Source of the DNA: a virus
Taxonomy: Duplodnaviria; Heunggongvirae; Uroviricota; Caudoviricetes
Strand: one strand, 5' to 3'
Length of the DNA: 5,774 nucleotides
IMG/VR virus record: IMGVR_UViG_2534681736_000010
Shown: positions 482-5,494 of the stretch, one piece after another
How the letters are laid out: the number at the start of each line of letters is the position of its first letter
Position numbering within the stretch: position 1 is the stretch's first letter
Position numbers and translations under genes: made by a program
The notes under the pieces: generated by a model
What the model was told of the DNA's origin: nothing
What the model saw: only the letters and a program-made list of their open reading frames with translations
Databases searched by the model: none

Positions 482-2211
482 GCCGGAAATCTTACCCCAA
501 CGTAAATGCTGCAAATCAGTATGCCCGTGATGTCGTGCGCGGAAAGATTGTGGCCTGCCAGTTTGTGATTCAGGCCTGCCAGCGCCATCTTGATGACCTG
601 ATGGCGGAAAAAAGTAAGTCGTTTCGTTACCGCTTCGACAAGGACCTGGCTGAACGGGCCGCGAAATTTATTCAGCTGTTGCCGCACACCAAGGGTGAGT
701 GGGCATTCAAACGGATGCCCATCACGCTGGAGCCGTGGCAGCTCTTTGTGATCTGCTGCGCGTTTGGCTGGGTCAATAAAGGCTCCCGGCTGCGCCGCTT
801 CCGGGAGGTGTATACCGAAATCCCCCGTAAGAACGGCAAATCGGCAATCTCTGCCGGTGTCGCCCTGTATTGTTTTGCCTGTGATAACGAGTTCGGCGCG
901 GAAGTGTATTCCGGTGCCACGACGGAGAAACAGGCATGGGAAGTCTTTCGTCCGGCACGACTGATGTGTAAACGCACACCCATGCTGACGGAAGCGTTCG
1001 GGATTGAGGTTAACGCCTCAAACATGAACCGTCCGGAGGATGGTGCGCGGTTTGAACCGCTGATCGGTAACCCTGGTGATGGTTCATCACCCCACTGTGC
1101 GGTGGTGGATGAATATCACGAGCACGCCACCGATGCGCTTTATACCACGATGCTTACCGGGATGGGGGCGCGACGTCAGCCACTGATGTGGGCCATCACC
1201 ACCGCCGGGTACAACATTGAGGGGCCGTGCTACGACAAGCGGCGGGAAGTTATCGAGATGCTCAACGGTTCGGTACCCAACGATGAACTGTTCGGGATCA
1301 TCTATACCGTTGATGAAGGTGACGACTGGATCGACCCGCAGGTGCTGGAAAAAGCCAATCCAAATATTGGCGTGTCGGTTTATCGCGAATTTTTGTTAAG
1401 TCAGCAGCAGCGTGCGAAAAATAACGCCCGTCTGGCAAACGTCTTTAAAACAAAACACCTCAATATCTGGGTGTCGGCGCGTTCGGCGTATTTCAACCTG
1501 GTGAGCTGGCAGAGCTGCGAGGATAAATCACTGACCCTTGAGCAGTTCGAGGGGCAGCCGTGCATTCTGGCCTTTGACCTGGCGCGTAAGCTGGATATGA
1601 ACAGCATGGCGCGACTTTATACCCGCGAGATTGACGGTAAAACGCATTACTACAGTGTGGCCCCGCGTTTCTGGGTACCGTATGACACGGTGTACAGCGT
1701 CGAGAAAAATGAAGATCGCCGGACAGCCGAACGCTTTCAGAAATGGGTGGAAATGGGCGTTCTGACTGTTACCGCTGGTGCGGAGGTGGATTATCGGTAC
1801 ATCCTCGAGGAGGCCAAAGCGGCGAACAAAATCAGCCCGGTCAGTGAGTCACCCATCGACCCCTTCGGGGCGACCGGGCTGTCGCATGACCTTGCTGATG
1901 AAGACCTGAACCCCATCACCATCATTCAGAACTACACCAACATGTCCGATCCGATGAAAGAGCTGGAAGCGGCGATTGAATCGGGGCGCTTTCATCATGA
2001 CGGCAATCCCATCATGACCTGGTGTATCGGCAACGTGGTCGGCAAAACCATTCCGGGTAACGATGATGTGGTGAAGCCTGTCAAGGAGCAGGCGGAAAAC
2101 AAAATCGATGGTGCGGTTGCGCTGATTATGGCGATCGGTCGGGCAATGCTCAAAGAACCCGACGATTTCCTCTCATCTCTTGATCCGGACGATGCTCTCT
2201 TAATTCTATGA
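478..2211 (+). CDS. Phage terminase large subunit (Terminase_1-type ATPase plus C-terminal nuclease)
   Basis: 577-aa ORF. P-loop-like motif IPRKNGKS at residues 115-122 (nt 820-843) and acidic Walker-B-like AVVDEYHEH (D211-E212 at nt 1108-1113). C-terminal region has motifs consistent with an RNaseH-like nuclease ([22 protein letters not shown]). ATG at 478 overlaps the upstream stop; the size is typical of large terminases. Confidence 0.95.
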
Positions 2212-2369
2212 AATCACTAATTGCTGATGTTATCGGGCTGGCTGGTTTTGGCCTGCTTACGTGCGGGTTTTACCTGCAGTTTGGTATGGCTCCGGCTCTG
2301 ATGCTGTCCGGCGGTTTACTGCTGGTGGGCGCACTGGCTATGGCCAGAAGGGGGACGCGTGCTGCTTGA
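2208..2369 (+). CDS. Small hypothetical membrane protein (53 aa, two predicted transmembrane helices); not in the supplied ORF track
   Basis: My translation: [56 protein letters not shown] 2208-2210 overlaps the terL stop 2209-2211 (ATGA); stop TGA 2367-2369 overlaps the portal GTG start at 2359. It fills the 147-nt gap between terL and portal exactly. Two hydrophobic stretches are separated by a short QFG turn, with a basic C-terminus (RRGTR). Codon choice is CTG/GGC-rich like the flanking genes. No Shine-Dalgarno is visible, so expression would depend on coupling to terL. Confidence 0.45.
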
Positions 2370-3585
2370 TGCTCTGTTCAGAAGTAAATCACTGGAGAAT
2401 CCTTCCACCCCGATAACCGGGGATGCCGTTGATACTGATGGGCTGTTCCGGACAGACGTTTATGTCAGTCCTGAAACTGCGATGAAACTGGCTGCGGTGT
2501 ATTCCTGTATCTATGTCCTGTCTTCCAGCCTTGCCCAGATGCCGTTGCATGTTATGCGCAGGCACAATGGGAAGGTTGAGCCCGCACGCGATCATCCGGC
2601 GTTTTATCTGGTTCATGATGAGCCCAATACCTGGCAAACCAGTTACAAATGGCGCGAACTGAAGCAACGTCACATCCTTGGCTGGGGGAATGGGTATACC
2701 TGGGTGAAACGTAATCGTCGCGGTGAAGTCATATCCCTGGATTGCTGTATGCCGTGGGAAACGACGCTGATGAATACTGGTGGCCGATATACCTACGGTT
2801 TGTACAACGAATATGGGGCGTTTGCGATCAGCCCCGACGATATGATCCACATCCGTGCGCTGGGTAATAATCAGAAGATGGGGCTGAGTCCGATTATGCA
2901 ACATGCCGAAACAATAGGCATGGGGATGAGCGGTCAGAAATACACAGAAAGCTTCTTCAGCGGTAATGCCCGTCCGGCGGGGATAGTATCCGTTAAAAGC
3001 GGACTCAATAAGGACAGCTGGGGCTGGCTTAAAGATCAGTGGCAGAAGGCATCGCAGGCGTTACGCAGCCAGGAAAACAAAACCATGCTGCTGCCAGCCG
3101 ATCTGGATTACAAGGCACTGACTGTGTCGCCAGTTGACGCTCAGATCATTGACATGATGAAACTGAACCGTTCAATGATTGCCGGTATTTTCAATATTCC
3201 TGCGCACATGATTAATGACCTCGAAAAAGCCACCTTCTCCAATATTTCTGCGCAGGCGATTCAGTTTGTCCGCTACACGATGATGCCGTGGGTAACGAAC
3301 TGGGAGCAGGAGCTTAACCGTCGCTTGTTTACCCGCGCTGAGTTAGCCGCCGGGTATTACGTTAGGTTCAATCTGACGGGGCTTTTACGCGGAACTCCGC
3401 AGGAGCGCGCGCAATTCTATCACTTCGCTATTACCGATGGATGGATGAGCCGTAATGAAGCCCGCGCATTCGAGGATATGAATCCGGTTGAAGGGCTGGA
3501 TGAGATGCTGGTAAGCGTGAATGCTGCTAACCCGGCAGGAGATTTTAAGCCCCCAAAAAATGATGAGGGAAAAACCAATGAATGA
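2359..3585 (+). CDS. Phage portal protein, HK97-family-like
   Basis: 408-aa ORF. N-terminus [22 protein letters not shown]...VSPETAMKLAAVYSCIYVLSSSLAQMPLHVMRR resembles the conserved N-terminal region of HK97-type portals. GTG at 2359 is the first possible start in this frame (in-frame stop TGA at 2299-2301; no ATG/GTG/TTG between). A G-rich stretch (agaaggggg, 2346-2354) lies just upstream. The size and position between terminase and protease fit. Confidence 0.9.
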   Translation: MLLDALFRSKSLENPSTPITGDAVDTDGLFRTDVYVSPETAMKLAAVYSCIYVLSSSLAQMPLHVMRRHNGKVEPARDHPAFYLVHDEPNTWQTSYKWRELKQRHILGWGNGYTWVKRNRRGEVISLDCCMPWETTLMNTGGRYTYGLYNEYGAFAISPDDMIHIRALGNNQKMGLSPIMQHAETIGMGMSGQKYTESFFSGNARPAGIVSVKSGLNKDSWGWLKDQWQKASQALRSQENKTMLLPADLDYKALTVSPVDAQIIDMMKLNRSMIAGIFNIPAHMINDLEKATFSNISAQAIQFVRYTMMPWVTNWEQELNRRLFTRAELAAGYYVRFNLTGLLRGTPQERAQFYHFAITDGWMSRNEARAFEDMNPVEGLDEMLVSVNAANPAGDFKPPKNDEGKTNE

Positions 3586-4180
3586 CCGTGAAATCCGTTG
3601 TTACAGCGGTGAGGTGCGTGCTGAGCGGCATGACGATAACCCTGCGCACATTATCGGTTATGGATCGGTGTTTGACTGTCGTTCTGAGCTGATATTTGGT
3701 TCATTCCGCGAAATCATCCGGCCCGGCGCTTTTGACGATGTGCTTGGTGATGATGTACGCGCACTGTTTAACCACGATCCTAATTTTATTCTTGGGCGTA
3801 GTGCAGCAGGCACGCTGAATCTTTCAGTTGATGAGCGCGGATTGCGCTATGACATCCAGGCTCCGGAGACACAGACCATTCGTGATCTGGTGCTGGCCCC
3901 GATGCAACGTGGAGATATTAACCAGTCATCTTTTGCTTTCCGTGTCGCCCGTGACGGCGAGGAGTGGTATCAGGATGAGGACGGGGTTGTTATTCGCGAG
4001 ATAACCCGCTTTTCCCGTCTGCTGGATGTCAGTCCTGTGACATATCCTGCCTATCAGGAGGCTGACTCGGCTGTTCGCTCCATGAAAGCATGGCAGGAGG
4101 CGCGCAACAGCGGCGCGCTACAGAAAGCCATTAATCAACGTATGGCGCGTGAACGCGTCCTGACCCTTCTTAACGCGTAA
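3578..4180 (+). CDS. Prohead maturation protease, HK97-family (S78-like) serine protease
   Basis: Translation from ATG 3578: MNDREIRCYSGEVRAERHDDNPAHIIGYGSVFD...PGAFDD...LFNHDPN...INQSSFAF, with His66 (nt 3773-3775) and Ser117/118 (nt 3926-3931) spaced as expected for the HK97 gp4-type catalytic residues. GAGGGA at 3565-3570 lies 7 nt upstream of the ATG, which overlaps the portal stop (ATGAATGA). In-frame ATGs at 3521, 3560 and 3563 lack a Shine-Dalgarno and are less likely. Confidence 0.88.
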   Translation: MNDREIRCYSGEVRAERHDDNPAHIIGYGSVFDCRSELIFGSFREIIRPGAFDDVLGDDVRALFNHDPNFILGRSAAGTLNLSVDERGLRYDIQAPETQTIRDLVLAPMQRGDINQSSFAFRVARDGEEWYQDEDGVVIREITRFSRLLDVSPVTYPAYQEADSAVRSMKAWQEARNSGALQKAINQRMARERVLTLLNA

Positions 4181-5445: not shown

Positions 5446-5466
5446 GCCGCGTAATGCGGTTTTTTT
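5446..5466 (+). terminator. Weak intrinsic-terminator-like element: short hairpin followed by a run of 7 T
   Basis: Stem CCGC (5447-5450) / GCGG (5456-5459) with loop GTAAT, followed directly by TTTTTTT (5460-5466), 27 nt after the capsid stop. The stem is only 4-5 bp, so predicted strength is low. Confidence 0.35.
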
Positions 5467-5488
5467 GTGCCCGCGTTCTGGCGGGCAC
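5467..5488 (+). other. Perfect 8-bp GC-rich stem-loop (GTGCCCGC / loop GTTCTG / GCGGGCAC) abutting the downstream Shine-Dalgarno
   Basis: Arms 5467-5474 and 5481-5488 are exact reverse complements (6 of 8 pairs G:C). It lies between the T-run and the AGGAGG at 5489-5494. Function is unknown (second terminator hairpin, RNA stabiliser or processing site). Confidence 0.5.
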
Positions 5489-5494
5489 AGGAGG
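5489..5494 (+). promoter_or_regulatory. Shine-Dalgarno (AGGAGG) for the downstream ORF
   Basis: Consensus AGGAGG sits 4 nt upstream of ATG 5499. Confidence 0.55.

Follow-up and report, generated by a model that had tools for sequence, protein, structure and literature searches.

What does a gene for a very small, strongly hydrophobic protein do between the large terminase and portal genes of a tailed phage? The question is raised by a 53-codon open reading frame (ORF) at positions 2208–2369 of a 5,774-nucleotide stretch of Caudoviricetes DNA (IMG/VR record IMGVR_UViG_2534681736_000010; the whole stretch is hereafter the window). The window corresponds to the packaging/head module of an SfV-like Escherichia coli prophage, matches E. 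coli strain 7784 at 100% and carries, in order, terS (P27 family), the large terminase gene terL, the portal gene and the genes for a prohead protease and the major capsid protein. No function for the ORF, here called the hairpin gene after the predicted fold of its product, is given in the literature and databases searched, although the gene is fixed between two central parts of the DNA-packaging machinery. Our analysis indicates that it is almost certainly a real, translated gene, as judged by comparison of sequences, and that it is likely a component of the module rather than a moron carried within it.

An ORF of this size is weak evidence on its own: 52 ORFs of 30 amino acids (aa) or more are present in the window. 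In all 83 loci fetched with the peptide itself, the ORF is 162 nt long, begins with ATG and shares the ATGA overlap with terL. Because that set is biased by its route of discovery, portal-anchored surveys were made, in which loci were fetched by portal proteins alone (SfV-, Ralstonia- and Pasteurellaceae-type queries) and the slot was then inspected. An intact homolog abutting the portal gene was present at 234 of the 235 portal-anchored loci with upstream DNA; these homologs amount to 101 distinct peptides, mostly of 50–53 aa, and overlap the portal start by 11, 4, 7 or 1 nt. Seventeen further genome loci, from Atlantibacter, Kluyvera, Citrobacter, Mangrovibacter, Kosakonia, Phytobacter, Edwardsiella, Rouxiella and Symbiopectobacterium and also from Pasteurellaceae, carry an intact gene in every case, and (A/G)TGA spans the terL stop.

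Substitutions among these copies are distributed as expected for a coding sequence read in this frame. Among 28 distinct DNA versions from the 83 loci, the ratio of nonsynonymous to synonymous substitution rates (dN/dS) is 0.22 in the ORF frame; four other frames give 0.9–3.6 and the antisense frame with the same wobble positions gives 0.44, and the variable columns divide 15/11/31 over the three codon positions. This frame-specific selection rules out a chance by-product of a GC/T-rich spacer. In a set of 55 distinct close loci, dN/dS was 0.29 for the hairpin gene, 0.06 for the terL body and 0.07–0.10 for the portal gene; on these estimates, selection on the hairpin is purifying but looser than on its neighbors, as is usual for small membrane peptides. 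The first-pass annotation of this DNA had named frameshifts or stops in homologs, or the lack of a purifying-selection signature, as observations that would speak against a gene. Neither frameshifts nor stops were found in the homologs, and at a dN/dS of 0.22–0.29 the signature is present. The sole portal-anchored locus without the hairpin gene (L202; IMGVR_UViG_2895086148_000001, positions 2490–2510) is a clean deletion, in which terL ends ...DDILVM* and the portal ATG follows 2 nt on, with terL and portal intact.

Two observations concern individual copies. On the chromosome of Symbiopectobacterium purcellii MEX the hairpin peptide is identical in all five loci (L105–L109), and the terL and portal scores against the window proteins are equal across them. 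A predicted 131-aa protein (P0037) consists of hairpin residues 1–39 joined by a frameshift to the portal N-terminus; it is probably an assembly or sequencing error and not a real fusion.

The hairpin gene and its surroundings in the window are laid out as follows.

478–2211, + strand: large terminase gene terL (PF03354 and PF20441, by Pfam), with its TGA stop at 2209–2211

about 2134–2208, + strand: terL tail, approximately the last 25 codons, co-varying with portal type and beginning at a mosaic joint near 2133

2208–2211, + strand: ATGA overlap, placing the hairpin start codon on the terL stop (from the sequence)

2208–2369, + strand: hairpin gene, 53 codons plus TGA stop; phrog_7105; product identical to RefSeq WP_000838374.1

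2214–2282, + strand: predicted helix 1, residues 3–25 (AlphaFold2, conserved columns, hydropathy)

2286–2363, + strand: predicted helix 2, residues 27–52, with a hydrophobic core at residues 28–46 and an invariant G35, followed by the basic tail RRGTRAA

2348–2355, + strand: Shine–Dalgarno-like AAGGGGGA for the portal gene, embedded in the codons of the hairpin basic tail

2359–3585, + strand: portal gene (PF04860, Pfam E = 3e-98; RefSeq coding sequence), with a GTG start

The space of 147 nt between terL and portal (2212–2358) is filled exactly by the 53-codon ORF, with ATGA at its start and the portal GTG overlapped at its stop, as the first-pass annotation had described and as the sequence confirms. 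The overlap with the portal gene is 11 nt. No Shine–Dalgarno site precedes the hairpin ATG, and the ATGA overlap is an arrangement that would allow termination–reinitiation coupling.

The portal start at 2359 is supported by relatives, which alternate between GTG and ATG at the equivalent position. Phage SfV is 95.8% identical to the window over 1900–2700, and its records (NC_003444.1; portal 2392–3666) place the portal start 48 nt further upstream and omit the small gene. A portal protein initiating there, which the first-pass annotation had recognized as a threat to the ORF, can be rejected for the window: the upstream GTG of SfV is a GCG in the window (2311–2313), the relatives alternate ATG and GTG at 2359, and the SfV start is thus an annotation choice, and probably a mis-annotation. 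The gene itself is not new but is already annotated and catalogued as hypothetical. It had been taken to be unannotated and liable to be missing from existing annotations, whereas RefSeq/PGAP has the identical protein WP_000838374.1 (hypothetical) at this place in E. coli strain 7784, records of the phages EPP-1, vB_VIPKPNMC05, vB_EcoS-716R3, F1055 and Evi list annotated homologs, and PHROGs has the family phrog_7105; the gene is omitted only by some older records, such as that of SfV. In Escherichia phage vB_EcoM-689R6 (2530–2706 of the locus), a phrog_502-type hairpin is labelled ‘head-tail joining protein W’, apparently a positional mis-annotation. The annotation errors exposed are thus the omission and too-early portal start in SfV and one ‘protein W’ name. 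In the record of Shigella phage SfII (2370–2419 of the locus), a ‘putative rho-independent terminator’ is annotated within the SfII_03 coding sequence.

The 53-residue product is very probably a membrane hairpin, as predicted from hydropathy and structural modeling. Its grand average of hydropathy (GRAVY) is 1.13, and the Kyte–Doolittle profile with a 19-residue window peaks at 1.76 (residues 3–21) and 1.91 (residues 27–46). AlphaFold2, run on a 45-sequence alignment, predicts helices at residues 3–25 and 27–52, broken at the invariant G26, with a mean predicted local distance difference test (pLDDT) score of 86.8. Together with the RRGTRAA tail, these results bear out the two membrane helices and basic C-terminus that had been predicted for the ORF. 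Conserved positions in helix 1 are D7, G10, G13, G20 and the turn motif Y22-L23-x-F25-G26; the family motif reads MKxLIxDxIGLxGF..L..GxYLQ(F/Y)G...ALM..G.LLL and is followed by the basic tail. Both helices are Gly/Ala/Ser-rich, with small-residue motifs that favor oligomerization. Pfam, NCBIfam and PADLOC scans of the peptide, of its counterpart Sb3 in phage ST64B and of D3 orf3 (both described below) gave nothing meaningful, the peptide having no Pfam match at E ≤ 10. A PDB sequence search with the family profile returned zero matches, and Foldseek against viral predicted structures returned only non-significant helical hairpins (best E about 1). An Rfam scan of 2000–2600 returned nothing beyond a chance miRNA match well under the threshold; the region is therefore not explained by a known RNA element.

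The peptide belongs to phrog_7105 (E = 9.2e-22, residues 1–52 on profile positions 1–52 of 52), a family from which it does not differ and which itself carries no function. Its members, from Edwardsiella, Klebsiella, Salmonella, E. coli, Ralstonia and Pasteurellaceae phages, occupy the same slot with the same overlaps, and a profile search of 1.84 billion representatives yielded 110 clusters at 50% identity, nearly all of 48–60 aa. The fixed slot overlapping both neighbors is found in phages of Enterobacterales, Pasteurellaceae, Ralstonia and Pseudomonas.

A second family in this slot is represented by ST64B Sb3 and SfII_03 (phrog_502; ‘membrane protein’ in RefSeq), in phages whose terL is 89–97% identical to that of the window. 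ST64B, SfI, SfII and SfIV carry a 58–60-aa two-helix gene between this terL and a different portal gene, the ST64B-type portal being 27–29% identical to that of the window. Sb3 is likewise a two-helix hairpin with the Gly pattern and a charged tail, but differs in length (60 aa), in sequence (25–27% identical) and in its turn, YPPAG as opposed to YLQFG; the ST64B-type genes also differ in having their own GAGG Shine–Dalgarno site and an 11-nt gap after terL. Whereas Sb3 matches phrog_502 at E = 2e-28, the window peptide matches it at E = 1e-4, nearly over its full length, as do five of five tested relatives (E = 4e-6 to 2e-4). Alignment of the window family with the Sb3-type family by hhalign gave a probability of 92%, E = 6e-7 and a score of 34.6 over 51 columns, compared with 17.1 for the reversed alignment and a mean of 11 (standard deviation 2.2, maximum 19.1) for 160 column shuffles. 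Because the reversed and shuffled scores are far lower, the similarity is positional and not merely compositional, and a remote homology between phrog_7105 and Sb3 (phrog_502) is supported by these profile comparisons. The third family is that of Pseudomonas phage D3 orf3 (phrog_4810), annotated in 2000, a 54-aa hydrophobic hairpin whose gene overlaps both terL (orf2) and portal (orf4). Relatives of the window peptide give weak profile cross-matches to phrog_4810 (E 3e-4 to 0.1), and D3 orf3 gives nothing against phrog_7105 or phrog_502 at E ≤ 1; homology of D3 orf3 with the window family is plausible. Some Sb3-type clusters occur on about 1,000 contigs, and the gene is carried by thousands of prophage copies in enterobacteria and other proteobacteria.

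Further portal-anchored surveys found a hairpin gene at 80/80 ST64B-type and 79/79 D3-type loci and at 0/80 HK97-type loci, where terL overlaps portal directly, in HK97 itself by 1 nt. At two of the 80 HK97-type loci (L550 and L574) no ORF abutting the portal gene was detected, whether a large one or a small hairpin one. The statement in the first-pass annotation that canonical HK97 modules lack a gene here thus holds for phage HK97; its remark that such a gene is unexpected inside a head-assembly module does not, given a homologous or analogous hairpin gene in SfV-, ST64B- and D3-type modules. The four portal lineages are roughly equidistant (27–35% identity). Among the three carrier groups, terL proteins share 46–91% identity, compared with 25–28% to that of HK97, and because the carriers' terL proteins are related and that of HK97 is distant, the presence of the hairpin may follow the terL family.

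Within the carriers, the hairpin varies with the portal more closely than with the terL body. Across 168 distinct terL/hairpin/portal triples, hairpin divergence correlates with portal divergence at r = 0.85 (partial r = 0.82 given the terL body), as against a partial r of 0.31 for hairpin and terL body. The terL genes of ST64B, SfI, SfII, SfIV and many E. coli prophages match the window at 90–98% only up to a mosaic joint at about 2133; past this point, the last ~20 terL residues switch together with portal type and hairpin subtype. The tail DFLSxLDPDDxLLIL accompanies SfV-type portals even at a terL body identity of 39%, and EDTLSDHIESYGIRSL accompanies ST64B-type portals even at terL body identities of 98–99.5%. 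This switching is consistent with a terL tail that would dock on the portal. One natural recombinant (L167, about 1213–1500) is Evi-type through terL, the hairpin gene and the first ~100–140 nt of the portal gene, with a portal body 99–100% identical to that of the window and a hairpin 55% identical to that of the window.

On the basis of these observations we tentatively propose that the hairpin is a late-expressed inner-membrane accessory factor that would tether or assist the portal and/or the terminase–procapsid complex. We argue for a function bound to terL and portal because the slot has been kept while the portals diverged to 27–35% identity. Membrane insertion and topology, late expression and the tethering or assembly role are what we infer. 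Following the positive-inside rule, the N-terminus and basic C-terminal tail would be cytoplasmic and the tight YLQFG turn would lie at the periplasmic face. Carriers have holin/endolysin/spanin cassettes downstream of a Q-like antiterminator, with the packaging genes next in the same direction, giving the late order Q-like antiterminator, lysis genes, HNH, terS, terL, hairpin, portal; because of this late-operon layout, the hairpin is expected to be produced late, together with terL and portal. Ribosomes ending terL translation would reinitiate at the ATGA overlap, and those ending the hairpin gene would be passed to the portal start. Since reinitiation and hand-over couple translation, the amount of hairpin would be tied to that of terL and portal. 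At the membrane, the hairpin may serve as a tether or assembly aid that holds the portal, as procapsid initiator, and/or the terminase–procapsid complex, comparable with gp40 and the portal of T4, improving assembly or packaging without being essential. In T4, gp20, the membrane-bound initiator of the portal, contacts YidC and depends on gp40, a viral chaperone (PMC9958956). The likeness to the hairpin, which lies in a phage-encoded factor aiding portal assembly at the inner membrane, is a functional analogy only; the T4 module is not HK97-type, and gene 40 is not known to neighbor the T4 portal gene. A stronger form of this proposal, in which the hairpin would be a dedicated membrane anchor or chaperone for portal and/or terminase in a large HK97-like clade, draws on that analogy and is doubtful.

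Several points weigh against the proposed accessory role. HK97-like portals and proheads are not known to require a membrane. HK97-type modules are without the hairpin gene (0/80 loci) and L202 is a natural clean deletion with terL and portal intact, so the hairpin is dispensable for keeping a module. The co-variation of hairpin and portal is partly forced by physical linkage, and the combination in L167 of an Evi-type hairpin with a portal body of window type means that tight matching of hairpin and portal body is not required. The Pfam, NCBIfam, PADLOC, PDB and Foldseek searches linked the hairpin to no characterized protein by sequence or fold. No function for genes in the terL–portal slot was found in the literature, including that on ST64B sb3 and small-gene catalogues, and the Salmonella small-protein Ribo-seq literature, including a supplement searched by peptide sequence, yielded nothing on slot genes; expression data for the hairpin gene were likewise looked for and not found. 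If a portal or terminase tether is nevertheless correct, membrane-assisted head assembly, documented for T4, would extend to HK97-like phages, with procapsid initiation or packaging on the inner membrane as in T4, and the three PHROG families (phrog_7105, phrog_502 and phrog_4810) would be one ancient, unrecognized class of head-assembly factor.

The first-pass annotation had raised the possibility of moron-type cargo (exclusion, toxin or immunity). Such a gene would be acquired horizontally and active in the repressed prophage to the advantage of the lysogen, as in superinfection exclusion by HK97 gp15. Morons are recognized by a promoter and terminator of their own, a GC content that deviates, a patchy distribution and expression in the prophage state (PMC3594210). 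The YebO-family exclusion protein gp15 is, like the hairpin, a small inner-membrane protein within a structural operon and is expressed from the prophage (PMC3594210), and PHROGs places the related phrog_502 under ‘moron, auxiliary metabolic gene and host takeover’, which looks like the default category for ‘membrane protein’ and not like evidence. Unlike the hairpin gene, that of gp15 has a promoter and a terminator to itself, an atypical GC content, a patchy distribution, bacterial homologs and a place in the tail operon. Simple consensus scans found no sigma-70-like site directly upstream of the hairpin ORF, the window counts equalling shuffle expectation, and no terminator of its own, the sole nearby candidate (2262–2278) being weak, inside the ORF and at chance level. 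GC content (mean of codon-position values) is about 56% for the hairpin ORF, about 54% for terL and about 51% for portal. Homologs outside the terL–portal context were not seen among the fetched loci (83 + 17), and the peptide matches no known exclusion or defence family in Pfam, NCBIfam or PADLOC. With no such promoter or terminator, ordinary GC content, overlaps with both flanking genes, hardly any presence/absence polymorphism (234/235, 80/80, 79/79) and a divergence that tracks the portal, the moron reading is not supported, and we regard it as very improbable. The other membrane-based alternative, a late effector unrelated to head assembly (holin- or antiholin-like, or one that blocks, at a late stage, the injection of DNA by other phages), is unlikely but less so. 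Class II holins have a general layout of two transmembrane helices and a cytoplasmic basic C-terminus, which is also predicted for the hairpin; its Gly/Ala/Ser-rich helices with oligomerization-favoring motifs would suit such a role, its amount would be tied to portal production, and T7 genes 17.5 and 18.5/18.7 are a precedent for lysis genes among packaging genes. Against this, the carriers hold canonical holin/endolysin/spanin cassettes elsewhere in the same genomes, which rules out the hairpin as primary holin, Pfam and NCBIfam holin models do not match it, and an independent function leaves unexplained why the exact slot is retained with portals at 27–35% identity. Were a lysis-timing or exclusion role nonetheless true, a function of this sort would, unusually, be locked into a packaging module.

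The remaining alternatives place the hairpin in the particle or set the peptide aside. As a minor virion or ejection component, packaged near the portal and released on infection, it would help DNA to cross the inner membrane. It is encoded in the head module beside the portal, and phages with contractile (SfV, ST64B) and non-contractile (Evi, vB_EcoS, D3) tails both carry the gene, so that its presence is linked to the head and not to the tail. A hairpin of 53 residues that is hydrophobic throughout would not easily stay soluble in a capsid, however, the usual membrane-channel candidate in these tail types is the tape-measure protein, and supporting virion proteomics was not found in the literature; this role is quite improbable. 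A gpW-type head–tail joining protein is not supported: lambda gpW shares the slot, between terL (gene A) and portal (gene B), and is of similar size, but it is a soluble protein, whereas the hairpin is almost wholly hydrophobic, with two hydrophobic helices, and matches neither the gpW family nor any other Pfam family at the threshold given above. It could also be that translation itself matters and not the peptide, the gene acting as a relay for ribosomes and thereby fixing the ratio of portal to terL translation. The start on the terL stop without a Shine–Dalgarno site, the stop overlapping the portal start, the overlaps of 11, 4, 7 or 1 nt kept across relatives and the direct coupling of terL to portal by a 1-nt overlap in HK97 would all fit a relay. 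The peptide is nevertheless under purifying selection with an invariant Gly/aromatic pattern, a hairpin recurs in three PHROG families, and the ST64B-type genes have their own Shine–Dalgarno site and a gap after terL. Translational coupling is probably real, yet it cannot be the whole story, and the relay as sole function is improbable.

Other features were observed around the module. Upstream of it in E. coli 7784, the serum-survival lipoprotein gene iss (2793–3086 of the locus) lies on the opposite strand after the lysis cassette, and an HNH endonuclease gene (3612–3962) lies directly upstream of terS, with the same HNH–terS layout in ST64B and Klebsiella phage MC05. At the other end, directly 3′ of the major capsid gene in the window, there is a strong terminator-like hairpin (5461–5494) with a 14-pair stem and a T run, at the position of the terminator annotated in SfV.

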